Source: Candidatus Tayloriibacteriota bacterium
GTDB lineage: Bacteria > Patescibacteriota > Minisyncoccia > Phycocordibacterales > PALSA-1337
Assembly: GCA_903857825.1 (NCBI GenBank)
Contig: CAIOGI010000001.1
Coordinates: forward strand, 40,698 to 104,697
DNA length: 64,000 bases
Direction of reading: 5' to 3'
The stretch's first letter is position 1. Every line of letters starts with the position of its first letter. Positions 4,177 to 51,538 of this stretch are shown here, piece by piece. The position numbers and the translations under genes were made by a program. The notes below the pieces were generated by a model. That model saw only the letters and a program-made list of their open reading frames with translations, was not told the origin of the DNA and ran no database searches.

Positions 4177-4216
4177 GATTTAAGTATACAATGCCAATCT
4201 TTTTCACACCCCCTTG

Positions 4217-4246
4217 ACAAAAAACTAGGGTATGCTATGATATCAC
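4217..4246 (+). promoter_or_regulatory. Near-consensus sigma70-type promoter (TTGACA-N17-TATGAT) pointing towards rpsO
   Basis: Sequence ccTTGACAaaaaactagggtatgcTATGATat. Confidence 0.5.
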
Positions 4247-4460
4247 CAACGTGTCTGAGCTTACTGCTATTGTTTATACCTATTGGCAAGGTAGGCAATG
4301 GCAATCGAACACCGCACAAACAATGGCCCCACGTGCTAAATGCGAGAGCACAGGCCACAACAATGAAAGGGAATCGCCATGATCAGAGGCCCGCCCCAAC
4401 TAGTTCGCCCCGTATCCCAATTTCGCACAGCTATGTGGAAAGAAGAGGATGCGGGGCATT
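4247..4460 (+). ncRNA. Candidate structured non-coding RNA or a long structured rpsO leader. The segment is GC-rich and sits downstream of the consensus promoter. Its class is unassigned.
   Basis: About 210 nt, visibly GC-rich in an AT-rich genome. It has no RBS or plausible ORF. A complementary pair cgccccgtatcc / ggatgcggggc is present. A second promoter-like TTGCAA-N17-TAGTAT lies just upstream of rpsO. Confidence 0.3.
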
Positions 4461-4502
4461 TAATTTGCAAATTTTATACATTCATGCTAGTATATCCCAA
4501 TC

Positions 4503-4772
4503 ATGTTAACAACAAGACAGAAGACAAATATCATAAAAAACGTAGCAATACACGATAAAGATACTGGCTCTCCAGAGGTTCAAATTTCAATATTAACAAA
4601 GAGAATCGAAGAATTAGCTGGTCACTTGAAAAAGCATAAGAAAGACAATCACTCAAGACGAGGACTTCTAGCCATGGTAGCCGATAGACAGACTCACATG
4701 AACTATTTAAAGAAGAAGAGCACTAAGCGTTATAACAGTATCGCGAAGAAACTAGATATAAAGGCAAAGTAA
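4503..4772 (+). CDS. rpsO: 30S ribosomal protein S15
   Basis: GSPEVQISILTKRIEELAGHLKKHKKDNHSRRGLLAMV matches the S15 signature. Confidence 0.95.
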   Translation: MLTTRQKTNIIKNVAIHDKDTGSPEVQISILTKRIEELAGHLKKHKKDNHSRRGLLAMVADRQTHMNYLKKKSTKRYNSIAKKLDIKAK

Positions 4773-4865
4773 AATTGGACTCGCTTGCTTGCGCTCGGAA
4801 GCTCCTCTTTTTTTCACAAGTTCAAAAAAGTAGGACTTCCTCACCGCGTCGAGTCTCAATTTTAC
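4769..4865. repeat. Palindromic intergenic repeat element, copy A. Its termini are gtaaaattggactcg ... cgagtctcaattttac, and it overlaps the rpsO stop.
   Basis: The same element recurs at 36090-36188, with variants at 44676-44702 and 45180-45317. Confidence 0.65.
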
Positions 4866-4977
4866 ATACCCTAATCATTATATGAGTCCAATTTTGTTAT
4901 TAATGGTATACTTAGTTCAGTAAGTATTTTAATAATAGTAGGTTAAATTTTAATAATAAATAAGTAAATAATTTTAT

Positions 4978-5613
4978 ATGTCAGTAATTAAACATAAAGA
5001 ACAGCGTGTTGGAGTTTTTATAGATACTCAAAACATTTATCATAGTGCGAAAAATCTATATCATTCAAAGGTCAATTTTGGTCAAATAGTAAAAGATGCG
5101 GTAGGGGAGAGATCTCTTATCCGTGCAGTCGCTTATGTCATAACAACAGAGGCAGGTGACGAGAAAGCATTTTTTGAAGCACTCACAAAAATGGGCATAG
5201 AAACTAAAACAAAGGATCTTCAGATATTCGGTAGTGGAGCAAAGAAGGCAGACTGGGATGTGGGACTTGCAATAGATGCTGTGAAGCTAGCACCAAAACT
5301 AGATGCAGTCATTCTAGTAACGGGCGATGGAGACTTCGTACCACTTGTAGAATATTTGCAGACAAATGAGGGGTGTCAGGTAGAAGTTGTTTCCTTTGGT
5401 AAATCAACATCAACAAAACTACGTGAAGTAGTAGATGATTTCTTTGACCTTGATGAAAGTGTTTCTAAATATTTAATCGGTCATCAAAATAGATTTCAAG
5501 GATCAGGAAAGGGTAAGGCACCTATTCGCCAAGGCTTCAAGAAGCGAGGACCAAAAGATGCGACAGTTGGAAATGTTGCAGATGAAATAGCGGATTTGAG
5601 TGGGCAGGAGTAA
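4978..5613 (+). CDS. NYN/LabA-like domain protein (a predicted RNase-like PIN-related fold)
   Basis: VFIDTQNIY, DVGLAIDA and ILVTGDGDFVPLV are the LabA/NYN acidic motifs. Confidence 0.7.
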   Translation: MSVIKHKEQRVGVFIDTQNIYHSAKNLYHSKVNFGQIVKDAVGERSLIRAVAYVITTEAGDEKAFFEALTKMGIETKTKDLQIFGSGAKKADWDVGLAIDAVKLAPKLDAVILVTGDGDFVPLVEYLQTNEGCQVEVVSFGKSTSTKLREVVDDFFDLDESVSKYLIGHQNRFQGSGKGKAPIRQGFKKRGPKDATVGNVADEIADLSGQE

Positions 5614-5634
5614 AAATTTTACACTATGAAACAA

Positions 5635-5669
5635 AAGACCTTGTGGCGGAAGTTCCCAAGGTCTTTTTG
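5635..5669 (+). terminator. Rho-independent terminator hairpin (aagaccttg...caaggtctt followed by a T-run)
   Basis: A perfect 9-bp stem followed by TTTTT. Confidence 0.6.
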
Positions 5670-5736
5670 ATTGATATAATTATGGATATTAAAAACTATT
5701 TTATAAATAATTATTAACTTTAATCTAAATATAAAT

Positions 5737-6561
5737 ATGAATGAAATAAAGGATATTGCATTGTTTGAGGGAAAGGAGGTGAGAAAAGTTTGGCATAATG
5801 AAAAATGGTACTTTTGTGTTAATGACATTGTGCTTGTTCTTACAGAAACCGTTGATCCAGTTGATTATATAAAGAAAATTAGACAACGAGATGAAGAACT
5901 TGGCAAAGGGTGGGGACAAATTGTCACCCCCCTTTCAATGCAGACAAGAGGAGGAAAACAGATGATCAATTGTGCAAACTTAGAAGGTATATTCAGAATA
6001 ATTCAATCTATTCCGTCACCTAAGGCAGAACCTATTAGGTTATGGCTCGCTCGTGTAGGCACCGAAAGACTTGAAGAAATTCAAGACCCTGAACTCGCTA
6101 TGGATCGGGCAAAAGCTATTTATGAAAGAAAAGGATATCCGAAGGACTGGATAGACAAGAGAATGAGGGGAATAAATGTTCGTCATAGCCTAACAGACGA
6201 ATGGAAGAACAGAGGAGTAAAGAAGGGTATTGAATTTGCTATTCTTACTGACGAAATATATAAAGGCACTTTTGACATGACTGCACAGGAGTATAAAAAG
6301 CATAAGTCATTAAATAAGGAGAATAATCTCCGTGATCATATGAATGACATCGAACTCATATTGACTATGCTTGGAGAGGCTACAACAACGAAGTTAACGC
6401 AAGATAGAGATTCACGTGAATTTGATAAGTTACAAAAAGATGCGGAAGAAGGTGGGGAAGTGGCAGGAAAAACTAGGAAGGACATTGAAAGTAGGACGAA
6501 GAAGACGGTAATAGCTAAAGAAAATTATTTGCCGAGAACAAGAAAAAATCTAAACTCATAG
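5737..6561 (+). CDS. DinD-family (DNA-damage-inducible protein D) / Bro-N domain protein
   Basis: It has a Bro-N-like N-terminus (KVWHNEKWYFCVNDIV...). The central FAILTDEIYKGTFDMTAQEYKKHKSL...DHMNDIELIL aligns with E. coli DinD FAIFQNRGYQGLYGG...DHMGSTELAANL. Confidence 0.6.
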   Translation: MNEIKDIALFEGKEVRKVWHNEKWYFCVNDIVLVLTETVDPVDYIKKIRQRDEELGKGWGQIVTPLSMQTRGGKQMINCANLEGIFRIIQSIPSPKAEPIRLWLARVGTERLEEIQDPELAMDRAKAIYERKGYPKDWIDKRMRGINVRHSLTDEWKNRGVKKGIEFAILTDEIYKGTFDMTAQEYKKHKSLNKENNLRDHMNDIELILTMLGEATTTKLTQDRDSREFDKLQKDAEEGGEVAGKTRKDIESRTKKTVIAKENYLPRTRKNLNS

Positions 6562-6778
6562 TTGATAGTTTACTGCCAACTATCAACCATAACATACAAA
6601 ATATACGACTAGAATATAAACTAGACTAATAATTAGACCAATAACTAGACTAATAATAGACTAATCTATAGTTATTAAATGGCTATATTTATAACTATAT
6701 ATGGATTTAGCTCAAAGTTATACCTTAAAAGCTAGTAGAAAAATTGATAGAAAAGTTAACCCATGATATACTCATATT

Positions 6779-8002
6779 GTGAACAATGAAACTATAGCAA
6801 AAAACAACTCAAATCCATTCAAAAAAGGCTTTCTATCTCATTTCAGCCTTGATTTTGACTTGTTTAAAATACAGGATTCAGATATACAGAGATTAGATAA
6901 TAAACTAAATTCCTTCGAAAAGATATTTCTGGACCCAAATATAGAAAAGACCCTAATAAGCAAGAATGAGTTACTTGCCTCTTTTGCAATATCAAAAGCA
7001 GAAAATTCTCAGCTCACATTAGAAGAAGCGGAAGATATCTATAAATTTGTTATAGAAAATAAAGATTTTGATTTTATAAGTAAAAAAATATCAAGTGGTA
7101 AAAAACTAGAAAAAAAAGACTATGAAAAGTTAGAATTCTTTAATATTGCTAGCACCTTTAGAGCTTTAAATGCAAATCCTTTTATGATTCAAGAACTGGA
7201 TGATAAATTGATTAGGAAAATCCATTTTGATATAACAAAAGGGCTAGATATTTTTGCTAAATATCTACCAGAATTTACTCTATATAAATCAGGAAACTGG
7301 CGTGATAATAATGAAATTCGTGTTGGAAAATATACTCCATCAGATTTCAAAGATATTCCAAATTCTATTTCTGATCTTATTTCATGGTTTAAAGATAATC
7401 AGTCCATAACAAATGTAGCTATATTTCATACTGCTCTATATGCAATACACCCTTTCAACAATGGGAATAAAAGAGTTTGTAGAATAATTGAGCATATTTT
7501 ATTAAAAATAATAGGGCTTAATAAGAATAATCTTTATAGTAATTCGTATTTTTATCATAAAGAAAAAACTAGATATTACAAGTATCTTTTAAGTTCACTA
7601 GAGAGAAGGAATCTTAATATTTTCTCATCTTTTATACTAGAGTCTATCGTCTTCTCTATTTTGGGAGTGATCAAAACTAGTCTAGAAATAAAAAGGCAAC
7701 AATACATTGCCCAGTCTGAACTTGATAAGGCAGTACAAAAAGCAATTAAAGGGCTTATTAAAAGAAGGGAATTGCAATTTAAAAACTTCTATAAAATAGT
7801 TAAAAACCAAATTTCCAAGCAAACATTCGTAAATTATCTAGAAAAAGCAGTAAGTGCTGGAATTCTTATTAAAAGAGATGCAGGCAAAGCAACATATTAT
7901 AGGTTAAATATAGAAACGGATGAGGAAAAGTTATTAGCGGAGTTACTTGAGGATATAAAAGGGAAGGTTGGGGTTATAGATGAGGATTTGAGGTTGGTGT
8001 AG
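6779..8002 (+). CDS. Fic/Doc-family protein with a non-canonical Fic motif (HPFNNGNKRVCR) and a C-terminal winged-helix-like region. The track start is a GTG.
   Basis: The HPFxxGNxR core is present. It deviates from canonical HPFx(D/E)GNGRxxR by having N at the D/E position and K in place of the second G. Confidence 0.65.
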   Translation: MNNETIAKNNSNPFKKGFLSHFSLDFDLFKIQDSDIQRLDNKLNSFEKIFLDPNIEKTLISKNELLASFAISKAENSQLTLEEAEDIYKFVIENKDFDFISKKISSGKKLEKKDYEKLEFFNIASTFRALNANPFMIQELDDKLIRKIHFDITKGLDIFAKYLPEFTLYKSGNWRDNNEIRVGKYTPSDFKDIPNSISDLISWFKDNQSITNVAIFHTALYAIHPFNNGNKRVCRIIEHILLKIIGLNKNNLYSNSYFYHKEKTRYYKYLLSSLERRNLNIFSSFILESIVFSILGVIKTSLEIKRQQYIAQSELDKAVQKAIKGLIKRRELQFKNFYKIVKNQISKQTFVNYLEKAVSAGILIKRDAGKATYYRLNIETDEEKLLAELLEDIKGKVGVIDEDLRLV

Positions 8003-8022
8003 AAATGTGATGTAAAAGAAAA

Positions 8023-8040
8023 CCGTACATCTCTGTACGG
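8023..8040. terminator. Bidirectional hairpin (ccgtaca-tctc-tgtacgg) between convergent genes
   Basis: A perfect 7-bp stem with A- and T-rich flanks. Confidence 0.45.
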
Positions 8041-8085
8041 CCGTTGTGGGTAATGCCCCGCTGAAACATTACCTTGATTTGCGTG

Positions 8086-8616
8086 TTATTGTGCGGCACG
8101 CTTTGCTTCATCTAGGTGTTGCCTGAGTTGCCCAAGAAACCTTCTTGAGTTCACAGTGATACCTTGTTTTTCTTCCTCCTCAAATAGCTTGATAAATTTT
8201 GTCAGAATCTCAACCGCAATTTTTGCGTCAAGAAATTTCTGGCAAAACCACCAAGCCATGGTCGGTCTGTAGTAGGCGAGTTCACGTGCAGCCTGCTTAA
8301 GATCTTTCTCGTTCATCCGAAGCATTCTCGTCGTCTGAATTACCCCCTCACCATATCCGGCCTTAGCGTATTCGGTCCAAGCTGACTCCAACACAATTTT
8401 CCTGTGGATTCTGGATAGTCCCCTAACCAGACTGGTAACGCCTTGTGTATCCCAAGTTGCCTTATCGGTCTTTGGGTGAATGATGTAAGAAGGGAAGTTT
8501 GTGGTATTCATGTACTTTGTCTTTCTTTTCTGGTGTTCAATGGCACACCTACTTAAAGCCGTATTTTGTTGTAAAGAACTAACTCTATGAATCTGCGACA
8601 TCAGTCGTAGACTCAA
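8086..8616 (-). CDS. Hypothetical protein with visibly higher GC than its neighbours
   Basis: A long ORF with coherent codon usage. I recognise no motifs in it. Confidence 0.4.
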   Translation of the reverse strand: MSLRLMSQIHRVSSLQQNTALSRCAIEHQKRKTKYMNTTNFPSYIIHPKTDKATWDTQGVTSLVRGLSRIHRKIVLESAWTEYAKAGYGEGVIQTTRMLRMNEKDLKQAARELAYYRPTMAWWFCQKFLDAKIAVEILTKFIKLFEEEEKQGITVNSRRFLGQLRQHLDEAKRAAQ

Positions 8617-8695
8617 TGAAGTCGAGGATTTTCTTAGGATCCTCGATGTTGAAAGTTTTAGGCGTTAGCCACGGTTACTTCACCGAGTGGAGTTA

Positions 8696-9070
8696 CTACT
8701 GTGCCTTATGTACCTTAACCATTTGGATGATTAAATGCGCCACCTCCTTCAACGGGAAAGGGTGTTCGTACTTTCCCAAGAGCCGGTAAGTGCAGTAAGC
8801 ATCTATTGCCTTGTGGTCACTGGTAGTCACAAGTGTAATGTCTTTCGGGATAAGTCTTGCGACTTCCGCTCCTGAAAACATATGCATCTGATGATCCAGC
8901 AGGACGAGCTGGCAACCATTGATTTTCTTCAACACCTGATTAATTGATGTGTTCATGGAAACCACGATTGACACCGCCTCAAATCCCGCTACCTGCACAG
9001 CTTGGCTGAGGTCTTTTACGAAGTATTGGTCGTCATCAACCACCGCTATTTTTGTTGTTCTATTTTTCAT
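8696..9070 (-). CDS. Stand-alone response-regulator receiver (CheY-like REC) domain protein
   Basis: IAVVDDD, and LVLLDHQM with the phospho-acceptor Asp. It is about 124 aa and has no output domain. Confidence 0.7.
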   Translation of the reverse strand: MKNRTTKIAVVDDDQYFVKDLSQAVQVAGFEAVSIVVSMNTSINQVLKKINGCQLVLLDHQMHMFSGAEVARLIPKDITLVTTSDHKAIDAYCTYRLLGKYEHPFPLKEVAHLIIQMVKVHKAQ

Positions 9071-9256
9071 AATCTGTTTGTTTTAATGTTCTTATCTGAC
9101 AATAGTATATCATCTCTGTCAATTCTTGTCTAAATTACGTCATTAATTATAGATGTATCTACTGAGTAGATGGCTAGGTTACTATATACATTGAGTATAG
9201 TTAAATTGTTGTCAGTATTATTGACATATGTATGCTATATTTGATATACTGATCCT

Positions 9257-9991
9257 ATGGAAAATATGTCTCAAATATTAGAGAAAATAGGACTTTCAAG
9301 CAAAGAATCGGCTATCTATCTGGCCTTACTCAAATATAACAATGCAACCGTACAGGATATTGCAAATGAAGCAGGAATTAAACGCCCAACCACATATCTA
9401 ATATTAGATGAGCTTAGAAAAAAGGGTCTGGTTCTAAAGATCCCCCATGCAAAGAGAGCGATATTTCAAGCCAGGGCACCAGATGAGGTATATGAACAGG
9501 TATCAAACAATTTGAATAATTTTGAAAAGATATTACCTAAACTTCGATCAATAAATCCATCTAGAAACACTGTAAAAACTTTATATTTCGAAGGAGCAGA
9601 AGGTTTAAAGGAATCATTAAACTACAGGCTCGCAGAAATGAAAGACAAGACGCTTGTAGGCTTTTGGGCAAAAGATAGTGGTTTACCAAAAAAGATTCTC
9701 GAATTATTTGATAATTGGAATAAAAATCTATTAAAATACAATATTACTATGGGAGGGGCAACACCAGATCATGAATCAACTAGGAAATATCTACAACAAT
9801 ATCCACAATTTTATAAATACCTTAAATTAGTACCCGAAAAAGACTACTCTTCTGATGTATCAATAGACGTAAGCGATGATTTTGTAAGAATAATAGATGG
9901 ACATGAATTAAAAGCAGTTATTATAGAAGATAAAAGGGTTGCTGATGCTGTAAAACAGATATTTGCACTTGCTTCTAAAAATATTCAATAG
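9257..9991 (+). CDS. TrmB-family HTH transcriptional regulator
   Basis: The N-terminus ILEKIGLSSKESAIYLALLKYNNATVQDIANEAGIKRPTTYLILDELRKKGLV matches the TrmB wHTH. Confidence 0.65.
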   Translation: MENMSQILEKIGLSSKESAIYLALLKYNNATVQDIANEAGIKRPTTYLILDELRKKGLVLKIPHAKRAIFQARAPDEVYEQVSNNLNNFEKILPKLRSINPSRNTVKTLYFEGAEGLKESLNYRLAEMKDKTLVGFWAKDSGLPKKILELFDNWNKNLLKYNITMGGATPDHESTRKYLQQYPQFYKYLKLVPEKDYSSDVSIDVSDDFVRIIDGHELKAVIIEDKRVADAVKQIFALASKNIQ

Positions 9992-10016
9992 TATAGTCAA
10001 AATTATAATTAAAATT

Positions 10017-10064
10017 CTATAGTTAACCCATGAAATCTAAGCAATACACCCTTGAGGTCGGTCC
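10017..10064 (+). repeat. Duplicated pnp 5' end (a pseudo-start encoding MKSKQYTLEVGPLL*). This is direct-repeat copy 1 of the 37-bp core acccatgaaatctaaRcaatacacccttgaggtcggt.
   Basis: It is identical to 12460-12496 apart from one mismatch. Confidence 0.75.
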
Positions 10065-10068
10065 TCTC

Positions 10069-10833
10069 TTATAGGTTTTCCTTTACAAAATCAACAGCAT
10101 ATCTAAACCTTTCTCCTAGTTTTTCTCTTTCACCAATAGCCACAAACGGCTTCATATCTGCAATAAATTCTTTTTCACTAAATTTATCTAATCTCTTATA
10201 AATTTCTTCTTTATTCTTCAAATCCAATCCGTAATATTTTAATTTCTCTTCTATCATAACACCATTAAAGACGGCCCCGAAACCAAGTAAGTAGGCCAAA
10301 TCATACAAATCCCTCCCTTTCTCTCTGGTCATGATTGCTCTTATTTTCTCAGAGAAAATTTCATTCATTGATAGATGATGAATATACGAATTAAAGATGA
10401 TAGGGAAATCACTTTTTATTGTAGATTTTGAAGGCTCTATTGGCTTTTCTCTAAAAGAAAAATCAAATTTTATAAAAACTTTATAATCTATAAAATCTGG
10501 CTTAACTGTAAGTAGATAGGTCTTACCAGAAATAGCCTCTCTTTCTTTAAATGAAAATCCTGAATTTTCTTTACAAATTAAAACAAAAAAATCTTTTATA
10601 AAGCCTTCAAACTCTTTATCTTGCATATCTACAGTAAAATCAAGATCTTCTGAAAATCTTGGGGCTCCAAAAATAATATGCACGGCTGTTCCTCCTTTAA
10701 AATAAACTTTTTCACAACCTTTCATAGAATATAATTTATCAAGACACAATAACTGTACATACTCTCGCAATACAATAGTCTCATTTGTCTTAAATTTCTT
10801 TGTTAGTTCATGTATTTGATCCTTTGTTATCAT
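10069..10833 (-). CDS. AbiEii/AbiGii-family nucleotidyltransferase toxin (type IV toxin-antitoxin / abortive infection)
   Basis: KGGTAVHIIFGAPRFSEDLDFTV is the AbiEii signature. Confidence 0.75.
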   Translation of the reverse strand: MITKDQIHELTKKFKTNETIVLREYVQLLCLDKLYSMKGCEKVYFKGGTAVHIIFGAPRFSEDLDFTVDMQDKEFEGFIKDFFVLICKENSGFSFKEREAISGKTYLLTVKPDFIDYKVFIKFDFSFREKPIEPSKSTIKSDFPIIFNSYIHHLSMNEIFSEKIRAIMTREKGRDLYDLAYLLGFGAVFNGVMIEEKLKYYGLDLKNKEEIYKRLDKFSEKEFIADMKPFVAIGEREKLGERFRYAVDFVKENL

Positions 10834-11450
10834 AGTATTTTATTAGTTTTTAATATTTCAATGATCTTATCTTTTACTATTCCTTTTTTTATATTATTTA
10901 CATATTCATCGAGTCTTTTCTTATCTATATTTGATAAATCATATTCGCTCATATCTATCTGTCTCTTTCCGTTTATAGACAAATATATCTGATCCAATAA
11001 TGCTTTTTCAGGAAGTGCAATGAGAAATCCATCCTTTTTCTCATAACCCCAGAATAAATCCTTATTAATATGAGAATAACTGTAGATATTGCCATCAATT
11101 TCTTTAATTTTTGTCTTTTTAACTGTTGCGCTAGTTATCTCAAAAGGGAATTGGGAAAGAATACCATGAAAATTCAAAGCTGATTCAAAAGAGATATATG
11201 ATGGTTCGTATAGGAAGTTTGCAATAAGAAAATTACTTGGCTTTTTACTTGGGATTATGTATTTACCCATTTCAAGTCTTTTTAAAATACCATTCATTAC
11301 AAGGCTATTTATCAAGTCGAAGGGGGCTTGATGTCTACTAATACCCAAAAGGTTTCGCAAGGTTTCACTGGGAATAATGCCAATATCTGATTGTAATATT
11401 GCTTCAGTTGCCTTTACTTTATTAAAGTTTTGATTATTCGATGATTCCAT
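10830..11450 (-). CDS. AbiEi-like antitoxin / transcriptional regulator (wHTH). Its stop overlaps the AbiEii start by 4 nt.
   Basis: It sits upstream of AbiEii and is translationally coupled to it (ATGA overlap). The N-terminal region ...LRNLLGISRHQAPFDLINSLVMNGILKRLEMGKY is HTH-like. Confidence 0.55.
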   Translation of the reverse strand: MESSNNQNFNKVKATEAILQSDIGIIPSETLRNLLGISRHQAPFDLINSLVMNGILKRLEMGKYIIPSKKPSNFLIANFLYEPSYISFESALNFHGILSQFPFEITSATVKKTKIKEIDGNIYSYSHINKDLFWGYEKKDGFLIALPEKALLDQIYLSINGKRQIDMSEYDLSNIDKKRLDEYVNNIKKGIVKDKIIEILKTNKIL

Positions 11451-11678
11451 ACACTACGTACTATACCAATTCTGTGGAATCATTACAAGTGGTGAATGTG
11501 GATAACTATATGAAAAGCGCAAAATACCTATATTAAATGTCATTTATATATGTTGCAAAATAAAGGTATTCTGATGATTTCGCATTTAAGTAATGTATAC
11601 TTGACTTAAAAGTGAGATTTAAATTAAGTATACTTAACTAAAATAAGGAAACTATACTACTTCTGATATAATATCCTC

Positions 11679-12424
11679 ATGAACAACGAATTTAAAAAAA
11701 AAACGCACAGCAAATACTATTAGAAAGGGCAGAAATTTCTTTACAAAAAGCAAAAGAACTTATACTCGAGCATATTCCAAATGAAGAAATACAAGCTATA
11801 TATGTAAAAGGGAGCTATATACAAGGGGAACTTAAAGAAGACAGTGATATTGACATAGTAGTGATTCTTAAAACAAAAAAATATTTACCTGATGTCTATA
11901 AACTAACAGATGATTTTGGTAATACTACAGATATGCCTTTTCAAGCTGTAGCATATACTATGGATGAATTGCAAACTGGAGTACTAGCCCAAAATAGAAC
12001 AAAATCGCCTACCACTATTAGTATCTTTGTTAAACAACTAGATCAACTTCCACTCATATATGGCCTAAAACCAGAAGGAAAACTCTATACTCGTACAGAT
12101 ATAAAAGATTTAACCGCTCAAATAGGGAACTTTAGAAAAATGTTTCTGCCAGATTTCGAGAAAGGGAACTTTCACTTCAAATCCCTAGTCAAACAAGTAT
12201 TATGGTTAGTAGAAAGGGAACAAAGGGCGCTGGGTATATTACCAGAATATTCTTGGCAACGCCTTGCGAATTCTATAAAAGATCCGGATCATATTGTCCA
12301 TAATACTTTAAAATATAGAAGGGGTGGAGAAGTTTCAGATAAAGAAAAGGATGAGTATATGAATAAATTAAATGAGTATTTGGAGATGTTGGGAGATAAA
12401 TATAAAAAGACAACAAATATTTAG
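11679..12424 (+). pseudogene. Pol-beta-superfamily nucleotidyltransferase gene (GS...DxD motif KGSYIQGELKEDSDIDIVVIL) interrupted by a frameshift at an A10 homopolymer (11694-11703). The track ORF is the GTG-initiated remnant 11861-12424.
   Basis: ATG at 11679 reads MNNEFKKK and then hits a stop. A -1 shift or an 11th A restores one continuous roughly 248-aa ORF, MNNEFKKKNAQQILLERAEISLQ...KGSYIQGELKEDSDIDIVVIL... Confidence 0.6.
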
Positions 12425-12459
12425 AAGCTATACCAATACCCCACATTCTGCTAAACTAT

Positions 12460-12496
12460 ACCCATGAAATCTAAACAATACACCCTTGAGGTCGGT
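12460..12496 (+). repeat. Direct-repeat copy 2 (the genuine pnp start region)
   Basis: See the feature at 10017-10064. Confidence 0.75.
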
Positions 12497-14551
12497 GGTA
12501 AGACCCTCACAGCAGAATTTAATGATTTAGCAGAGCAAGCTCACGGTTCTGTAATGATGCGATACGACAACACTGTCGTGCTCGCTACAACAGTTATTAG
12601 CAAAGAAGAAAAAAAGGGGGATTTCTTTCCACTCACTGTTGATTATGAAGAAAAGTTTTATGCAGCTGGGAAAATTTCTGGTGGTAAATATAATAAAAGA
12701 GAGGGAAGACCAAGTGATGAAGCCATTCTTTCTGGAAGAATAGTGGATAGGACTATTCGTCCGCTTTTTGATCAACACATTCGTAATGAAGTGCAGGTCA
12801 TACTTACTGTACTTGCTTCTGGCGAAGGAGACCTACATATTCTCGGAGTAATTGGCGCATCACTTGCACTAGGTACATCAAAAATCCCTTGGAACGGTCC
12901 AGCTTCATGTATTCATGATGTAAATCCAAACTACGACCTTGTCGCTTGTGGTAAAGATGGACTAATAAATATGATTGAAGTTGCTGGCAAGGAGGTTGAT
13001 GAAGAAATCGTAAACAAGGCTTTAGTGAATGCTAGTGTAGAAATTGAAAAAATTCAGTCATGGCAAGAAGAAATAATAAAAGAAATCGGAAAGACAAAAA
13101 TGATAATTCCGAAGCCAGAACTTACTGCAGGCACAGAGGAGCTCTTTAATGTTGAAATTACAAACAAACTAGGTGAATACATTTTTGGATCAATTGGTAA
13201 AGATAGAATGGGGGAAATAGCTGACATTTGGACAAAATTATTTATAGAAAAATTCCCTGAGGGGAATCTAGGGCTGGCACAGGAATTTCTTGATGAAAAA
13301 ATAAATGACTTAATACACGCAGAAGCAATAGAAAATGAAAAGAGACCGGACGGTAGAAAGATGGACGAAATAAGACCATTATTTGCAAAGGTTGGTGGAA
13401 TCTCACCGATTCTGCATGGAACAGGGACATTTTATAGAGGAGCAACACACGTTCTTTCAGTACTTACACTTGGCGGGCCTGGGGATGTACAAGAAATAGA
13501 TGGAATGGAAATTACTGAAGCAAAGAGATTTATGCATCATTACAATTTCCCTCCATTCTCAACAGGCGAGACAGGCAGAGTCGGCGGAATGAATCGCAGA
13601 ATGATCGGCCACGGAGCTCTCGCAGAGAAGGCCCTACTACCTATTATTCCAGCAAAAGAACTATTCCCTTACACAATACGCATAGTGTCAGAAGCCTTTT
13701 CATCAAATGGTTCTACATCGATGGGATCTGTTTGCGGATCAACATTAGCACTTATGGATGGAGGGGTTCCTATAAAGGCACCAGTGGCAGGTATTGCATC
13801 TGGACTTATGATGCGAGAAGCGAAGGCTGGCGTAATGGGTAAGCTTTTTGGAAAGAAAAATTATGAATATAAAGTTCTAACAGATATACAAGGACCAGAA
13901 GATCATCATGGTGATATGGACTTCAAGGTTGCAGGTACAAGACAAGGCATCACAGCAATACAAATGGATGTAAAAGTTAATGGTATTCCATTAGAAATTT
14001 TGAAAGAAGCATTCGAAAAGGCAAAATTAGCTCGTTTTCAAATCTTGGACTTGATAGAAAAAGAAATCACCAAGCCAAGAGAAAAGATATCACCAAACGC
14101 TCCTGAGATAGTTATGACAGCGGTCAAGCAAGATCAGATCGGCTTGGTTATAGGTACAGGAGGAAAGACAATCAAGGAAATAAAAGAGAAAACTGGTGTA
14201 GATGACATCACAATAGAAGACGATGGAACAATATTCATCACAGGAAAAAATGGTACCGCTCAAAAGGCAAAAGAAATTATATACAATATGACACGTGAGT
14301 ACAAAGCAGGGGAGAGATTTGAAGGAGAAGTTACAAAGATCACAGACTTCGGTGCATTCGTGAGGATTGCCGGTTCAACAGAGGGACTTGTGCATGTTTC
14401 AGAAATAGCAACATTCCGAGTCGATAGAGTTTCTGATTATCTAAAAGAAGGAATGAAAGTACCAGTAATCATTCGTGAAGTAGATGAAAGAGGAAGATTG
14501 AGTCTATCTATAAAACAAGTTGATCCAAACTTTATAAAGAAAAAAGCTTAG
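12464..14551 (+). CDS. pnp: Polynucleotide phosphorylase / polyribonucleotide nucleotidyltransferase
   Basis: Two RNase PH domains, then KH and S1 domains (…GLVIGTGGKTIKEI…, …GERFEGEVTKITDFGAFV…). Confidence 0.95.
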   Translation: MKSKQYTLEVGGKTLTAEFNDLAEQAHGSVMMRYDNTVVLATTVISKEEKKGDFFPLTVDYEEKFYAAGKISGGKYNKREGRPSDEAILSGRIVDRTIRPLFDQHIRNEVQVILTVLASGEGDLHILGVIGASLALGTSKIPWNGPASCIHDVNPNYDLVACGKDGLINMIEVAGKEVDEEIVNKALVNASVEIEKIQSWQEEIIKEIGKTKMIIPKPELTAGTEELFNVEITNKLGEYIFGSIGKDRMGEIADIWTKLFIEKFPEGNLGLAQEFLDEKINDLIHAEAIENEKRPDGRKMDEIRPLFAKVGGISPILHGTGTFYRGATHVLSVLTLGGPGDVQEIDGMEITEAKRFMHHYNFPPFSTGETGRVGGMNRRMIGHGALAEKALLPIIPAKELFPYTIRIVSEAFSSNGSTSMGSVCGSTLALMDGGVPIKAPVAGIASGLMMREAKAGVMGKLFGKKNYEYKVLTDIQGPEDHHGDMDFKVAGTRQGITAIQMDVKVNGIPLEILKEAFEKAKLARFQILDLIEKEITKPREKISPNAPEIVMTAVKQDQIGLVIGTGGKTIKEIKEKTGVDDITIEDDGTIFITGKNGTAQKAKEIIYNMTREYKAGERFEGEVTKITDFGAFVRIAGSTEGLVHVSEIATFRVDRVSDYLKEGMKVPVIIREVDERGRLSLSIKQVDPNFIKKKA

Positions 14552-21694: not shown

Positions 21695-22477
21695 ATGAAT
21701 AATAATTTCACTGCAAAAAAGTCTTTGGGTCAAAACTTTCTTCACGCACCGAATGTTATTTCTGCAATGGTTCATGCTGGAGAAATTTCTAAAGAAAATA
21801 CCGTGCTTGAGGTTGGTCCGGGGAAGGGCGCTTTGACGATAAAACTTTTAGAGACCGGTGTACACGTTATTGCAATCGAAAAAGACGATAGGGCTATTCC
21901 ATTTTTAGAAGAAAAGTTTTCTAACGAGATAAAAAGTGGTCAGCTCGAACTAATTCATGAAGATGTACTATCTTTTAACGAAAAAAGATTGAGTAACTAT
22001 ATTCTAATAGCAAATATTCCATATTATATAACTGGAGAATTTATGAGAAAGTTTCTAGAGACTTCAAATCCGCCTATAAGGATGGTTGTAATGCTTCAGA
22101 AGGAAGTAGCAAAAAGGATAGTTGATGCGAAGGGGAGCATTCTTTCTTTATCAATAAAGTCATATGGTGAACCGAAATATCTAGTAACTGTACCGAAAAA
22201 GTTCTTTAGACCGATACCAAATGTTGATTCCGCCGTGCTTATTGTTAATAACATATCAAAAAGATACTTTACGGAGTCTGGCATAAATGAAAAATACTTT
22301 TTTGATGTAATAAAAACTGCTTTTGCTCACAAAAGAAAGGTTGTTATAAAAAATCTAGAGCAAATAATACCAAGAGAAAAGCTAAATCTCATATGGGAAA
22401 GAGAAAATCTATCTACCAATGCGAGAGCAGAGGACTTATCCACTGAAATGTGGAAAAAAATCGTAGGAAATCCATAA
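21695..22477 (+). CDS. rsmA: 16S rRNA (adenine1518/1519-N6)-dimethyltransferase
   Basis: KSLGQNFLHAPNV, VLEVGPGKGALT and NIPYYIT. Confidence 0.9.
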   Translation: MNNNFTAKKSLGQNFLHAPNVISAMVHAGEISKENTVLEVGPGKGALTIKLLETGVHVIAIEKDDRAIPFLEEKFSNEIKSGQLELIHEDVLSFNEKRLSNYILIANIPYYITGEFMRKFLETSNPPIRMVVMLQKEVAKRIVDAKGSILSLSIKSYGEPKYLVTVPKKFFRPIPNVDSAVLIVNNISKRYFTESGINEKYFFDVIKTAFAHKRKVVIKNLEQIIPREKLNLIWERENLSTNARAEDLSTEMWKKIVGNP

Positions 22478-22480
22478 AAC
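22441..22480 (+). repeat. Direct-repeat copy 1 (the authentic rsmA 3' end), ggacttatccactgaaatgtggaaaaaaatcRtaggaaat
   Basis: It is 40 bp long and is repeated at 23775-23814 with one mismatch. Confidence 0.75.
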
Positions 22481-22542
22481 GGCTATAAATAGGGGTATTT
22501 TATTAACAAAAACCATATGTAATATAATACTTTACATTTGGT

Positions 22543-23763
22543 ATGACTTGGTGTAATATGATAGTTACAATGAATAAGACATATTATAAAAGAAAAATTT
22601 ATTCGGCTCTTAAAGAGCATATGAACAGTAATGATGTGACGATTATTACTGGTATGCGTCGTACTGGAAAAACAACCCTGGTAGAACATTTATTAAGCGA
22701 AATTGACTCAAAAAATAAAATATTTCTAGATCTAGAGAAAATTAGTAATCAAGAACTATTTTCAGATAAAAACTATGATAATGTGATCATAAATCTAGAA
22801 CGGAGAGGCCTCACACAAAAAGAGAGAATGTTTGTGGCCCTTGATGAAATACAAACGATGCAAAATATTCCGAGTGTTATAAAGTATTTACATGATCATT
22901 ATAATATAAAGTTTATTCTGACTGGTTCAAGCTCTTATTACTTGAAAAACCAGTTCACTGAGTCCCTAGCTGGCAGAAAAATGCTTTTCGAACTTTTCCC
23001 TCTTGATTTTAGTGAATTTTTAACATTTAAAGAGATTCCGCACATAGCAACTAAAAATATTGAATTAATCAAGTCATTCGATACTAATGAATTTGATAGA
23101 TTGAAAGCATATTACGAAGAATACATAGAGTTCGGTGGTTTTCCAAAAGTTGTACTTGCACAAAAAATCGAAGAAAAGAAAAATATATTAGATGATATTA
23201 TAAGTTCATATATTAATATTGATATAAAAAGTATTGCTGATTTTAAAGAAAGCTCTTCAATAATAAATATAGCTAAAATGTTGGCTGGAAGAATAGGGAA
23301 TAAGCTAGATTATTCTAAAATATCACATCTTACAGGCCTTTCTCGACCAACAGTGCAAAATTATATTAGTTTATTTGAACAGACCTATCTCATTTCTCTG
23401 GTACCAGTCTTTACAAAGAATCAAGACAGAGAGATAGTAAAAGCCCAAAAAATATACTTCTCAGACAATGGTCTAGCCGGAATCCTTGCCGACATTGACA
23501 GTGGATCAAAGTTTGAAAATGCTATTTTCAATCAACTTCGTAAAAAAAATAATATAAAATATTTTTCATTAAAAAATGGCAATGAAATAGACTTTATAAT
23601 GGACAATAAACTAGGTTTAGAGGTAAAGGAAACACCCACAGGACATGATTTGAAAGATTTAAGTAATTTGTCTGAAAAAGCGGGAATAAGTTCATATAAA
23701 TTAGTTGGTAGACACAAAACACCAAATTTTTCTGAATATATGTGGGGAGGCAATATTCTATAA
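22543..23763 (+). CDS. AAA-domain ATPase with a C-terminal DUF4143-type domain. It is the cargo of a direct-repeat-flanked insertion.
   Basis: TGMRRTGKTT (Walker A) and FVALDEIQ (Walker B) in the architecture typical of the AAA_14/DUF4143 family. Confidence 0.7.
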   Translation: MTWCNMIVTMNKTYYKRKIYSALKEHMNSNDVTIITGMRRTGKTTLVEHLLSEIDSKNKIFLDLEKISNQELFSDKNYDNVIINLERRGLTQKERMFVALDEIQTMQNIPSVIKYLHDHYNIKFILTGSSSYYLKNQFTESLAGRKMLFELFPLDFSEFLTFKEIPHIATKNIELIKSFDTNEFDRLKAYYEEYIEFGGFPKVVLAQKIEEKKNILDDIISSYINIDIKSIADFKESSSIINIAKMLAGRIGNKLDYSKISHLTGLSRPTVQNYISLFEQTYLISLVPVFTKNQDREIVKAQKIYFSDNGLAGILADIDSGSKFENAIFNQLRKKNNIKYFSLKNGNEIDFIMDNKLGLEVKETPTGHDLKDLSNLSEKAGISSYKLVGRHKTPNFSEYMWGGNIL

Positions 23764-23774
23764 TAGACAAATAT

Positions 23775-23814
23775 GGACTTATCCACTGAAATGTGGAAAA
23801 AAATCATAGGAAAT
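23775..23814 (+). repeat. Direct-repeat copy 2. It is a pseudo 3' end of rsmA encoding ...LSTEMWKKIIGNN*.
   Basis: See the feature at 22441-22480. Confidence 0.75.
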
Positions 23815-23871
23815 AATTAGGTTTATTGATATAATTTCATAGGTATTTTAAATAATTTTAAATACTACCCC

Positions 23872-34797: not shown

Positions 34798-36090
34798 ATG
34801 CAAAAAGTATTTATAGCCAGCATATCAATAGTGATACTTATCCTTATCGGTGCAGGGGTGTATTGGTATGTGAACAAAGACATAGTCTCACAGTTACCAG
34901 CAACTACTGAGGGTGAAACAAGAGATCCTTTTGTTCCACTTAACAGAAATGGAATTACAGCAGAGAATCCAAACACCCCAACAAATCAGAATGAAAATAC
35001 TGAGCCCACAACACCATCGAACAACGCATCTTTTAAAATGCCCAAGCTTAGACAATTGAGCAACACGCCAGTAGCAGGAATGTATGCCAGCACAACAAAA
35101 ATAAGGGATTTAAATTTCTCAAGCACAACAATTGAAAAAACAATAGTTCGTTTTGTCGACAGGGGAACTGGGCACATATACGAAGCAAATGATAGTGATT
35201 TAAATATAGAAAAACTATCAAACACGACACTTCCAAAGATCTATGAGGCTTTTTGGAATAAAAACCTAACAGCAATGGTTGTGAGATATTTAAAGGACAA
35301 TACAGACATGATCACAAACTTTTATGCTGAAGTAAGGTCAAATCCAAACTCAACAGCATCTTCTACAACATCGTTCGAAGTTAAGGGTAAATATTTATCT
35401 CCAAATATTAACCAAGTAGCTGTATCTCCAGAAGGTAACAGAATATTTACATGGAATATTGAAAACGATAGCGGTGTTGGCTATTTATCATCTTTTGATG
35501 AAAAAGGTAAAACAAAAATAATAGATACTCCGCTAACCCAAATGAATATTGACTGGCCAGCAACATCTACAGTTACACTAACCACTCGCGGATCGGGTTT
35601 TTCTTTGGGATATATGTATGCAATAAACACAAAAAACGCCTCTACACGTAAACTATTTGGTGGAATTCGTGGTATATCTGCCAAAATGAGTAGGGATGGC
35701 AAGAATGTTATTTATTCTACTGGTGGAAACAATCTTACCTTAGGACTTTTCAATACAAACAAGTCTGAATTCACAGAAGTCATGTTCAATACGATCGCAG
35801 ACAAGTGTGTGTGGAGCTCAATCAGAACAAATGAAGCCTACTGCGCTGTTCCAAACGAAACACCTGCCGGAGTGTATCCCGATGATTGGTATAAGGGTAA
35901 AATCTTGTTTACAGATAAAATATGGCACCTAGACACAACGACAGGGGAAGTGCACTTATTGGCAAACCTTCTTGATCTTTCAAATAAACTGATTGACGCT
36001 ACTGAACTTGTACTTGATCCAAAAGAGAATTATTTATACTTTATAAACAAAAGGGATTTGACGCTTTGGGCACTAGATCTAAACCAGTAG
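34798..36090 (+). CDS. N-terminally anchored extracytoplasmic protein that is beta-rich. It is the last gene of the cluster.
   Basis: The transmembrane anchor ISIVILILIGAGVYWYV. Confidence 0.45.
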   Translation: MQKVFIASISIVILILIGAGVYWYVNKDIVSQLPATTEGETRDPFVPLNRNGITAENPNTPTNQNENTEPTTPSNNASFKMPKLRQLSNTPVAGMYASTTKIRDLNFSSTTIEKTIVRFVDRGTGHIYEANDSDLNIEKLSNTTLPKIYEAFWNKNLTAMVVRYLKDNTDMITNFYAEVRSNPNSTASSTTSFEVKGKYLSPNINQVAVSPEGNRIFTWNIENDSGVGYLSSFDEKGKTKIIDTPLTQMNIDWPATSTVTLTTRGSGFSLGYMYAINTKNASTRKLFGGIRGISAKMSRDGKNVIYSTGGNNLTLGLFNTNKSEFTEVMFNTIADKCVWSSIRTNEAYCAVPNETPAGVYPDDWYKGKILFTDKIWHLDTTTGEVHLLANLLDLSNKLIDATELVLDPKENYLYFINKRDLTLWALDLNQ

Positions 36091-36188
36091 TAAAATTGGA
36101 CTCGCTTGCTTGCGCTCGGGAGCACTTTATTTTTATACGCAAGCTAGTAAAAATAAAGTCTCCCTCACCGCGTCGAGTCCAATTTTAC
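36090..36188. repeat. Palindromic intergenic repeat element, copy B. It exactly fills the gap between convergent stop codons.
   Basis: Its termini gtaaaattggactcgcttgcttgcgctcgg ... cctcaccgcgtcgagtccaattttac are near-identical to copy A. Confidence 0.7.
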
Positions 36189-50933: not shown

Positions 50934-50997
50934 GTTTTTAATTTAAAAAAGTTAAATATTGTATTTATTATAGCGTATAAGGTAAATTTGACTGCTA

Positions 50998-51025
50998 TTG
51001 ACTTTACCGCTGACTGTGATATAAT
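50998..51025 (+). promoter_or_regulatory. Consensus promoter 1 (TTGACT-N16-TGaTATAAT, an extended -10), followed by leader hairpin agccagaa-ttgt-tctggct at 51036-51054
   Basis: It is near-identical to the promoter and leader at 51511-51570. Confidence 0.6.
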
Positions 51026-51072
51026 ACTACCGTAAAGCCAGAATTGTTCTGGCTCGGTTACGGAATGATCAT

Positions 51073-51458: not shown

Positions 51459-51510
51459 TATTTTCGATTAGGTAGTAATTGATTAGCAGGTTTAATATCT
51501 TTTAATACTA

Positions 51511-51538
51511 TTGACTTTGTGTCTAGATGTGATATAAT
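51511..51538 (+). promoter_or_regulatory. Consensus promoter 2 (TTGACT-N16-TGaTATAAT), followed by leader hairpin gctggaa-tatgttgt-tccagc at 51550-51570
   Basis: A paralogue of promoter/leader 1. Confidence 0.6.

Follow-up and report, generated by a model that had tools for sequence, protein, structure and literature searches.

A candidate defence-gene cassette bracketed by a duplicated rsmA terminus in a Patescibacteria genome

[quoted passage not shown] In a later genome survey RM systems were found between repeats longer than 30 bp, for example of 46 bp overlapping gene 3' ends, without mobility genes and mostly in naturally competent species (Furuta et al. 2010, PMC2853133). This survey delimits the class by absence from an aligned relative, a repeat >30 bp with one copy at the empty site, no mobile genes, a length <20 kb and the presence of restriction and modification genes. 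For Rhs, CDI and T6SS effector–immunity loci, arrays formed by “C-terminal displacement” have been proposed (Kirchberger et al. 2017, PMC5361080).

Here, we describe a short insert at the rsmA gene of a Candidatus Tayloriibacteriota bacterium (Patescibacteria), located in a window of 64,000 nucleotides (contig CAIOGI010000001.1, positions 40,698 to 104,697) to which all coordinates refer; related loci are numbered with the prefix L. Judged from the sequence, the rsmA event can be placed in the class of insertions with long target duplication. It shares with the RM cases a short segment of defence or selfish type that is absent from relatives and has no integrase or transposase, a repeat that varies in length between events (46, 47 to several hundred bp in the RM cases) and is often a gene 3' end, and a host presumed capable of DNA uptake. 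Empty site, repeat, size and lack of mobile-element genes thus agree with the definition given above, whereas no methyltransferase is present; the insert is like the class but not an RM case, because its cargo is a single ATPase-nuclease gene of the PDC-S01 family (at the second locus discussed here, pnp, it is a toxin–antitoxin module). Further differences are the patescibacterial host and the recurrence of one cassette family with consistent borders. With integrase islands the locus has in common that a direct repeat of a gene 3' end brackets the insert and that the gene is restored, and it differs from them in having no recombinase, no common core and only one gene on 1.3 kb.

The rsmA locus and its empty sites

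The gene rsmA (16S rRNA dimethyladenosine transferase; 21695–22477, plus strand) is intact, as the initial annotation had maintained, and has a Pfam RrnaAD match of E 5.5e-50. A repeat search of the window showed that its final 40 nt ahead of the last codon (22432–22471, plus strand), which are part of the functional gene, recur directly at 23775–23814 on the same strand with an identity of 39/40, the sole mismatch being G at 22463 and A at 23806. A repeat of the rsmA 3' end of about 40 bp with one mismatch had been claimed before and is borne out by this alignment; the interval given then for the downstream copy was exact, that for the upstream copy (22441–22480) was off by 9 nt. An ungapped scan of the flanks gives the pair a score of 37 with a shuffle maximum of 12, and local alignment against 2000 shuffles revealed no significant similarity past either border (p 0.12–0.75). 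The similarity therefore ends abruptly on both sides, which counts in favor of a duplicated target.

The repeat–cassette–repeat arrangement is real and no assembly artefact, since both copies with the identical G/A mismatch recur in an independent assembly (L081) and the DUF4143 gene of the insert is found on other contigs with the exact RsmA protein. This protein occurs on 35 contigs, 13 of which were read: in both displayed places the DUF4143 gene follows downstream, the remaining 11 being collapsed as similar. A search via the RsmA 90% protein cluster, which consists of this single member, did not reveal an empty allele of the same species.

Empty sites are known from 13 related Patescibacteria genomes (the 12 loci L001–L012 and L124), a comparison with cassette-free relatives that had been called for. 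All of them have the order UvrD-RsmA-p293 with one copy of the block and without the DUF4143 gene, i.e. rsmA is followed directly by the downstream operon (p293, type IV secretion-like, with PrgI, TraC-like and TraG genes). From this alignment the segment 22472–23774 (1303 bp, plus strand) can be recognized as an insertion into the rsmA locus, 6 nt ahead of the gene end; with ~30% G+C it is poorer in these bases than its flanks (~35–38%). The block is seen as single-copy at the empty site in L001, L002 and L124, and it is the downstream copy that continues into the ancestral flank as in these three, first with GGAAATAATTAG and then with TTGATATAAT. It joins the ancestral rsmA stop (AATTAG) and the native promoter/leader (TTGATATAAT at 23826–23835), which alignment with the relatives shows to be kept intact at 23815–23871 (plus strand). 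The insert contributes the last codon and the stop of functional rsmA, CCA TAA (22472–22477); the gene ends with MWKKIVGNP followed by the stop, while the downstream copy reads in frame MWKKIIGNN and stop. The designation of the latter as an orphan tail is thus correct, with the refinement that the orphan adjoins the ancestral flank and the functional gene has the foreign end.

Repeat position 11 is A in both copies of the window and C in all 13 relatives, a lineage-specific state shared as expected from local duplication. The G/A mismatch is uninformative in this respect since most relatives have G like the first copy and L124 has A like the second one; the idea that the orphan copy had drifted from G to A was withdrawn because of the A in L124.

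Homology-assisted integration is a serious rival of insertion by breakage and joining; we consider this rival possible but on balance doubtful. It assumes that incoming DNA from a related lineage already had the conserved rsmA terminus beside the cassette, so that the repeat would be the footprint of an overlap and not a target-site duplication. Either a circle of cassette and block would have entered by a single RecA-type crossover with the chromosomal block (Campbell type), or a linear fragment would have recombined homologously within rsmA on one side and by an illegitimate joint 46 nt ahead of the resident stop on the other, as in C-terminal displacement. The position of the repeat speaks for it and has to be counted against breakage and joining: in 14.5 kb few exact matches to diverged relatives are as long as those of the rsmA block (22443–22471) and the pnp 5' block (12460–12498), and the right border of the repeat lies exactly where the rsmA termini of different lineages begin to differ. 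This border together with the natural-looking tail of proline and stop (L005 ends GNP and stop) is easier to reconcile with homology-assisted integration than with random staggered cuts.

The A at repeat position 11, present in both copies and in 0/13 relatives, argues in the other direction. It means that any donor must have been very close, and from such a donor the rsmA tail NN and stop would be expected instead of P and stop. Homology-assisted integration also presupposes a donor with the cassette beside rsmA, an arrangement found in 0/15 related rsmA loci. Against breakage and joining it has to be said that no donor, insertion intermediate or empty allele of the same species was found. 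A longer, diverged duplication from a donor lineage reaching past the 40 nt was sought and rejected, as no side of either event gave a significant alignment (at pnp likewise by local alignment with 2000 shuffles). Sliding-window identity across UvrD-rsmA against 11 relatives gave no switch and thus no mosaic signal, in a comparison in which RsmA of the relatives is only 65–80% identical and thus too distant for power.

The cassette and its homologues at other sites

The insert contains only one open reading frame, which starts at 22543 or 22570 and ends at 23763, and a putative promoter TTTACA-17-TAATAT (22531–22559, plus strand) that overlaps a short inverted repeat ATGTAA/TTACAT and is conserved in homologous cassettes; the initial view of a single-gene DUF4143 cassette with its own promoter is therefore well founded. 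Upstream of homologous genes the block ATGTAAnnnnnnnACTTTACAnnTGG...TGTAnACT is kept in 8 loci, and over 22517–23765 the cassette is 71% identical at the nucleotide level to those of L082 and L083. The protein of 397 amino acids (22570–23763, plus strand) consists of AAA_14 (E 3.7e-31) and DUF4143 (E 1.5e-26) without other Pfam domains and matches seven PADLOC models of PDC-S01 (best E 5.8e-66), which makes its gene a member of this candidate phage-defence family. Its predicted architecture joins a STAND/Orc-like ATPase and a winged helix to a PD-(D/E)xK nuclease at the C-terminus. Residues G28/G33/K34/T35, D92/E93, E316, D341 and K353 are invariant and E351 nearly so; the ATPase and nuclease motifs are intact. 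In an AF2 model (pLDDT 89) the best Foldseek matches are NLR, Apaf-1, Avs and Orc1/Cdc6, and the modeled fold is that of a STAND/NLR sensor with a nuclease effector, typical of defence proteins.

In the literature PDC-S01 is a PADLOC candidate single-gene defence system (AAA_14 + DUF4143, COG1373) with ATPase and PD-(D/E)xK architecture (PMC12988326, PMC3424549), and PDC-S01/DUF4143 genes are reported as the fourth commonest candidate “defence system” in prokaryotes. One representative was tested in E. coli and did not belong to the systems that gave protection (bioRxiv 10.1101/2024.09.26.614923). The cassette protein agrees with this family in model matches and architecture and differs in the flanking target duplications; the literature searched holds nothing on such duplications or on mobility of the family.

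Could the cassette be an autonomous single-gene mobile element whose own STAND-type ATPase-nuclease nicks both strands of the target at a variable offset of 35–90 nt and drives insertion? It is a discrete unit with its own conserved promoter and invariant catalytic motifs, it recurs with flanking repeats, and the family is extremely abundant; the one phage test published for it, in E. coli, had a negative outcome. Nevertheless, we regard this as improbable. The same architecture is found around cargos without the gene (AbiE plus nucleotidyltransferase at pnp, RAYT plus MNT/HEPN in L103, MNT/HEPN in L101), the fold is that of a defence protein, and no joining activity is predicted. If it were true, the cassette would represent a transposase-free selfish class and explain how insertions with long target duplication arise.

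Other types of mobile elements were considered and rejected. For a DNA transposon or insertion sequence a transposase domain is absent, a repeat search found no terminal inverted repeats at 22472 and 23774, and the duplications measure 35–92 nt. An integron gene cassette disagrees with the presence of an own promoter, with the just 11 nt between stop codon and border, and with the absence of intI from the neighbourhood. Diversity-generating retroelements were discarded as well: insert and neighbours have no reverse transcriptase, the repeat is 40 nt with one difference instead of ~100 nt or more with adenine-specific changes, the relatives are single-copy, and the mismatches within the repeats of L082 and L087 show no adenine specificity.

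Homologous cassettes are bracketed by direct repeats of 35–92 nt, often gene termini, in ~6/27 testable metagenome loci; a general repeat scan of 13 Patescibacteria rsmA loci without the cassette, used as controls, gave no such repeats. The repeat of L082 comprises 65 nt (63/65 identical) of the 3' end of tsaE, that of L087/L088 92 nt of the 5' end of a secreted-protein gene, and others measure at least 39 nt (L090), 76 nt (L098) and 35 nt (L113). The sequences of the repeats in the window, L082, L087, L090, L098 and L113 are mutually unrelated and have no shared core. The initial annotation had spoken of a recurring insertion mechanism in this genome; the layout does recur, in the pnp event and in other genomes, but its restriction to this genome was too narrow, as cassettes of other Patescibacteria have it with unrelated repeats. 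Nearest cassettes adjoin tsaE, infC-rpmI-rplT, dnaJ and other genes. The search for a second empty site, at tsaE of L082, led to only one close relative (TsaE 83% identical), which also has a DUF4143 gene downstream. The footprint is not universal since four further close homologues (L119–L123) have no flanking repeats. No repeat is detectable at ~21 of the 27 homologous cassettes altogether; these could have decayed or could have entered by a different route.

The cassette borders are consistent between independent sites, which speaks for breakage and joining. On the left the border precedes the ATG by 98 bp in the window and by 108 bp in L082, and on the right it lies 7–31 bp past the stop codon in five events, a regularity that counts against homology-assisted integration with a random illegitimate joint, which would not land there in five independent events. 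Known C-terminal displacement differs in the same point, as the right joints of the cassettes lie within 31 bp of their stop, unlike random illegitimate joints, and also in that the displaced tip there is a toxin domain with immunity gene and here 40 nt of a housekeeping gene, the new tip being one codon. Common to both is a conserved part of a gene as anchor, with new DNA beside it and the old terminus pushed downstream.

Some of the loci have a more complex history. L087 and L088 are 98.5% identical in the repeat–cassette–repeat unit with unrelated DNA upstream, and the switch falls inside the first repeat, which shows recombination within a repeat and is in line both with the explanation by breakage and joining and with homology-assisted integration. 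In L113 four ATPase cassettes form an array separated by copies of the 3' end of one gene. Such orphan 3'-end arrays recall those for which displacement has been proposed at Rhs and T6SS loci (PMC5361080), where successive events produce arrays of orphan termini, and thus support a homologous route, as does the natural-looking tail MTTIE and stop at the L082 repeat.

The arrays of L090/L103, L098 and L113, each with one common repeated sequence, could also be explained by site-specific integration through a recombinase acting in trans (a chromosomal Xer-like enzyme or a helper integrase), with the block as attB and its copies as attL/attR. Classically, an integrase is recognized by direct repeats of a 3' end through which the gene is restored, and an Xer-like gene is present in the window (1978–4176, minus strand), ~18 kb from the insert. 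We consider this explanation very improbable. According to Pfam and gene content, the insert and the neighbouring genes have no recombinase, the cassette repeats are unrelated, range from 35 to 92 nt and so lack a common core, the cassette ends are neither conserved between loci nor inverted repeats, and the Xer-like gene is kept in relatives that lack both inserts. Neither tRNA nor Rfam elements were found at the junctions.

A 48-nt tblastn overlap at the Xer-like gene had suggested a third duplication event and turned out to be an in-frame LAGLIDADG intein. An intein also interrupts UvrD of L001.

The pnp insertion

The second insert of the window was initially described as having the same architecture as that at rsmA. 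It is a real insertion with duplication of a gene end, but it is the 5' end of pnp that is duplicated instead of a 3' end, and the cargo is different. A distal orphan copy of the pnp leader and 11 codons (10017–10062, plus strand) agrees in 45/46 positions with the only copy of L124, and the proximal copy (12451–12496, plus strand), which forms the 5' end of functional pnp, matches the distal one in 41/46 positions. Between them lies the insert 10063–12450 (no strand assigned) with AbiEii (10069–10833, minus strand), AbiEi (10830–11450, minus strand) and a nucleotidyltransferase (11679–12424, plus strand) that is frameshifted in the window. That the pnp event is a true insertion is seen from L124, in which TrmB and pnp are adjacent.

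Nevertheless, it is not a simple mirror image of the rsmA event, because extra homology of 11 bp precedes the proximal copy and the pnp allele is anomalously similar. The final 11 bp of the insert (12440–12450) match the native pnp upstream region in 10/11 positions, and the tract 12440–14544 is 89% (nucleotides) and 97% (amino acids) identical to L124 with only 64–84% amino acid identity in the neighbouring genes. The pnp event thus bears clear signs of homologous exchange, and it is here that homology-assisted integration finds support: such an imported allele is what C-terminal displacement leads one to expect. The imported tract demanded by homology-facilitated illegitimate recombination is seen at pnp; at rsmA the relatives, all just 65–80% identical, are too distant to show one.

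A possible route of insertion and its meaning

The explanation we tentatively prefer, and which may well be correct, is insertion of a promoter-plus-gene cassette by breakage and joining, independent of a recombinase and with fill-in of a 40-nt offset. Foreign cassette DNA, presumably obtained by DNA uptake, would be joined to a broken target at two points 40 nt apart, with the left end of the cassette after 22471 and the right end before the equivalent of 22432, and repair synthesis would then copy the 40 nt between the joints into a direct repeat. The cassette's own nuclease may participate in these steps. Only events whose duplication regenerates both neighbours would survive, and this would explain, for a genome so tightly packed, that gene termini form the repeats: rsmA would keep all but its last residue and the downstream operon its promoter. 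Once formed, the repeats would provide portable homology, by which homologous recombination could lead to loss or amplification of the cassette or to its transfer into the corresponding block of a related or paralogous locus. If repeat-mediated excision occurs, circles with outward-facing junctions of the type ...ACAAATAT-GGACTTATCC...GGAAAT-CCATAAAACGG would be formed.

We know of no enzyme that produces staggers of 35–92 nt, and this has to be counted against breakage and joining. A cruciform or hairpin target cut by a resolvase-like nuclease was rejected as a general explanation: folding of seven repeats gave mixed z values of -5.0, -4.6, -2.2, -1.8, 0.0, +1.1 and +1.9.

Genome comparisons have documented insertion with long target duplication since 2000, so far almost wholly for RM systems in a few competent bacteria. 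The same footprint is now seen in the ultra-small genomes of Patescibacteria, around PDC-S01 cassettes and toxin–antitoxin modules, and the cassette, a single gene with its promoter and clear-cut borders that is found inserted at many natural sites, offers a tractable model for the mechanism. It also suggests how streamlined genomes with scant intergenic space and without classical mobile elements gain defence genes while essential neighbours stay undamaged. By analogy, the layout of the cassette matches the older pattern of selfish movement of defence genes, and this raises the question whether the abundance of PDC-S01 may in part reflect selfish spread and not defence.

The rsmA repeat and the gene between its copies

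The host is a Patescibacteria (Paceibacteria/Taylorbacteria-like) bacterium whose rsmA gene (21695-22477, plus strand; Pfam RrnaAD, E 5.5e-50) carries at its 3' end one copy of a direct repeat of 40 nt (22432-22471), with the second copy at 23775-23814. Both are identical at 39 of 40 positions, the sole mismatch being G at 22463 versus A at 23806. The 40-bp repeat of the rsmA 3' end with one difference, claimed in the initial annotation, was recovered by repeat search and by an ungapped comparison of the sequences on both sides of the gene (score 37 versus ≤12 in shuffles); the second interval had been placed exactly but the first 9 nt too far right. Local alignment reveals no significant similarity past either border. 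The C-terminus of RsmA, copy 1 included, reads ...MWKKIVGNP*, and in-frame reading of copy 2 gives ...MWKKIIGNN*. Between the copies there is, as had been proposed, a single DUF4143 AAA-ATPase gene: the only ORF (22570-23763, plus strand; gene callers put the start at 22543) shows the Pfam domains AAA_14 and DUF4143, with TTTACA-17-TAATAT upstream at 22531-22559. An independent assembly (L081) has the identical structure including the G/A difference. An identical RsmA protein is encoded on 35 contigs, 13 of which were looked at; a DUF4143 gene lies downstream of RsmA at both places displayed, and the other 11 of the 13 contigs were grouped as similar. The repeat with its cassette is neither an assembly artefact nor a chance match.

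Comparison with relatives that lack the cassette covers 13 genomes, all with rsmA directly followed by p293 and no DUF4143 gene. Twelve of them (RsmA 65-80% identical) share the order LysM/M23 peptidase - UvrD - RsmA - p293 - p520 - p669 with an rsmA-p293 gap of about 40-60 bp, and L124 is the thirteenth genome with the same rsmA arrangement. UvrD of the relative L001 (2914-5988) is interrupted in frame by an intein (about 360 aa; VVGDMDQ|C...VHN|C), and the window UvrD has none. In three relatives (L001, L002, L124) rsmA ends with ...GGAAAT AAT TAG/TAA or ...GGAAAT ACT TGA, followed by (A/T)TTG(A/G)TATAATTT(C/T)ATAGGTATTTTAAAT. This flank corresponds to the window sequence after copy 2, not after copy 1, which means that copy 2 adjoins the ancestral rsmA stop, together with the promoter that serves the type IV secretion-like operon further on (PrgI, TraC-like, TraG). 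Copy 1 is contiguous with the rsmA body. The claimed insertion beside an intact rsmA thus stands but with corrected polarity: copy 2 borders the ancestral flank, and the first six bases of the insert (CCA TAA) supply the final codon and stop of the functional gene. Judged from these alignments the insert comprises 22472-23774 (1303 bp); its G+C content is about 28-32% versus about 35-38% in the flanks. Repeat position 11 is A in both window copies and C in every relative. The G/A difference gives no polarity for the event, since G (copy 1) is found in most relatives and A (copy 2) in L124.

The pnp event and its surroundings

The pnp locus had been described as having the same architecture. 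It is a real insertion with direct repeats, but it duplicates a 5' end, bears signs of exchange and is not a simple duplication. The repeat (46 nt, 41/46 identical; 10017-10062 and 12451-12496) represents the 5' leader and the first 11 codons of pnp and brackets 2.4 kb with AbiEii (10069-10833, minus strand), AbiEi (10830-11450, minus) and a nucleotidyltransferase (11679-12424, plus). Insertion follows from L124, where TrmB and pnp are 45 bp apart and the block is single-copy. Of the 11 bases before the proximal copy, 10 agree with the native sequence upstream of pnp in L124. The tract 12440-14544 is 89% identical to L124 in nucleotides and 97% in amino acids, compared with only 64-84% (aa) in neighbouring genes, which indicates that the pnp allele was exchanged by recombination. 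The event is best read as one homologous plus one illegitimate joint rather than as simple target duplication.

This recombination tract has the size of a gene and ends at the pnp stop codon. The rpsO-pnp interval differs as a whole between relatives, and from rpsO/NYN to pnp it is a variable hotspot (window 5614-12439, L124 7753-9976, relative L127 1520-2645). It contains Bro-N, Fic, a response-regulator-like gene, TrmB, AbiE and the nucleotidyltransferase in the window, a periplasmic binding protein and a different TrmB in L124, and one unrelated gene in L127. The nucleotidyltransferase homopolymer at 11694-11703 is A10 in the window, which breaks the frame, versus A11 in two other assemblies (L117, L118); this could be phase variation or sequencing error.

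Further features of the window include an Xer-like tyrosine recombinase (1978-4176, minus strand; ORF of 732 aa, 93% identical to that of L124) with an in-frame intein (C...HN|S) carrying a LAGLIDADG endonuclease at the catalytic HxxRH|SFAT region. A palindromic element (AAAATTGGACTCGCTTGCTTGCGCTCGG ... CCTCACCGCGTCGAGTC; about 110 nt) occurs in two copies about 80% identical (4751-4862 and 36072-36186), both at a gene's 3' end, and has no Rfam match. A 58 nt repeat (50987-51044 and 51500-51557, 74% identical, 513 nt apart) contains TTGACT...TATAAT promoter-like sequences.

Recurrence of the layout and properties of the cargo

Patescibacteria contain at least 4834 DUF4143 homologues at E ≤1e-20 among 8000 candidates scored, mostly on short contigs. 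Close homologues mostly lie on contigs of 1-9 kb, several hardly exceeding the gene, as assemblies breaking at repeated or strain-variable cassettes would produce. In a scan for bracketing direct repeats at 35 metagenome loci and five loci of the closest proteins, about 6 of 27 testable loci have repeats far above the shuffle range, and the expected recurrence of the layout is confirmed. These repeats are 65 nt in L082 (63/65; the stretch that immediately precedes the tail of tsaE), 92 nt in L087 and L088 (85/92; the first 92 nt of a secreted-protein gene), at least 39 nt in L090 (truncated where the contig ends; the terminator that follows a surface-protein gene), 76 nt in L098 (palindromic multicopy repeat) and 35 nt in L113 (intergenic promoter region inside a cassette array). 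A general scan for direct repeats spaced 300-8000 nt apart detected no pairs in the window other than those of rsmA and pnp, and none at all at 13 cassette-free Patescibacteria rsmA loci.

Repeats of different cassette loci have no sequence relation to each other. The inserted unit is consistent, with a start-to-start spacing of 1343-1470 nt, a left border 98 bp (window) or 108 bp (L082) upstream of the ATG and, in five events, a right border 7-31 bp past the stop codon. The window cassette shares 71% nucleotide identity with those of L082 and L083 over 22517-23765, and a promoter block ATGTAA n7 ACTTTACA nn TGG ... TGTAnACT is kept upstream of eight homologues; conserved or inverted cassette termini were not found. 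Locus L113 (1150-7920) strings together four single-gene ATPase cassettes, all different (AlbA_2-like, two AAA_14/DUF4143-like, DUF4143) separated by 60-190 nt copies of a LamG-like gene 3' end with terminator and promoter. Small accessory modules without a DUF4143 gene also carry the footprint: in L103 (6-1474) a RAYT-like gene and an MNT/HEPN pair have on either side the same terminator block as the cassette of L090, and in L101 (8245-9305) an MNT/HEPN pair lies between 48 nt repeats. The direct repeats of these two toxin-antitoxin modules (48-60 nt) include terminator hairpins. In L121 a DUF4143 gene is followed, at a distance of about 1.6 kb, by a diversity-generating retroelement module (4099-5502; bAvd and split RVT_1), probably by coincidence.

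The cargo protein (397 aa) matches seven PADLOC models of the candidate defence system PDC-S01 (best E 5.8e-66). In alignments of 23 and 30 homologues Walker A (G28, G33, K34, T35), Walker B (D92, E93), a GSSS motif with R136 and, C-terminally, E316, D341 (EIDF motif) and K353 are invariant, and E351 (E-x-K motif) is invariant or nearly so. This C-terminal pattern is a PD-(D/E)xK nuclease signature, and DUF4143/COG1373 has been assigned to that superfamily (Steczkiewicz et al. 2012, PMC3424549). The AlphaFold2 model (pLDDT 89) is closest to STAND/NLR proteins (WRR4A, Apaf-1, Avs4, Avs5) and Orc1/Cdc6, and predicts a nuclease fused to a module made up of ATPase, helical domain and winged helix. 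Among the candidate defence systems of prokaryotes PDC-S01 is reported to rank fourth in frequency (PMC12988326); when one representative was assayed in E. coli, it did not belong to those giving protection from T4, T5 or T7 (bioRxiv 10.1101/2024.09.26.614923). The literature found on DUF4143, COG1373 or PDC-S01 makes no mention of mobility or flanking repeats.

Possible routes of insertion

Three classical routes were rejected for the rsmA event: a site-specific integrase (no recombinase gene, no core common to related cassettes), a transposon (no transposase, no inverted ends, duplications of 35-92 nt) and an integron (cassette with its own promoter, too little space for an attC site, no neighbouring intI). 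The architecture is that of an insertion with long target duplication, a name given by Kobayashi's group (Furuta et al. 2010, PMC2853133). Their cases are restriction-modification genes missing from the sister genome, without mobility genes and with repeats of >30 bp (e.g. 46 bp) overlapping gene 3' ends, mostly in naturally competent species, and a life cycle using the repeats is hypothesised (PMC2853133). The rsmA cassette resembles them in its long flanking repeats at a gene 3' end, its absence from relatives and the lack of mobility genes.

We tentatively rank first a break-and-join event, in which two joints 40 nt apart and fill-in of the gap would truly duplicate the local target. The lineage-specific base common to both copies, the sharp end of similarity at both borders, the discrete cassette with consistent borders and the finding of closely related cassettes next to quite different genes all support it. 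Homology-assisted entry (Campbell-type or homology-facilitated illegitimate recombination) ranks after it as a serious but less probable reading for rsmA. In its favour, the rsmA and pnp blocks rank, over 14.5 kb, among the longest stretches identical to diverged relatives, lineages part at the right border of the rsmA repeat, the functional copies have natural-looking tails (P* in the window, cf. GNP* in L005; MTTIE* in L082) and the pnp allele is discordant. Moreover, repeat-cassette-repeat of L087 and L088 is 98.5% identical next to unrelated upstream DNA, and from the start of the first repeat they differ at 4 positions within 39 nt but nowhere in the next 450 nt, which implies a crossover inside the repeat. 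Later spread and the pnp event probably took this route. The nuclease encoded by the cassette might take part in insertion, but nothing supports this: nuclease-free cargos show the same footprint and the cargo folds like a STAND sensor of the defence type. It is considered improbable that PDC-S01 genes move autonomously as transposase-free elements.

Returning to break-and-join, selection may explain why repeats are gene termini. The rsmA stop lies 6 nt from the next promoter, so only insertions rebuilding both neighbours would survive. The class of event was already known; what is new is the family to which the cargo belongs, the phylum of the host and the repeated occurrence of cassettes whose borders are consistent.
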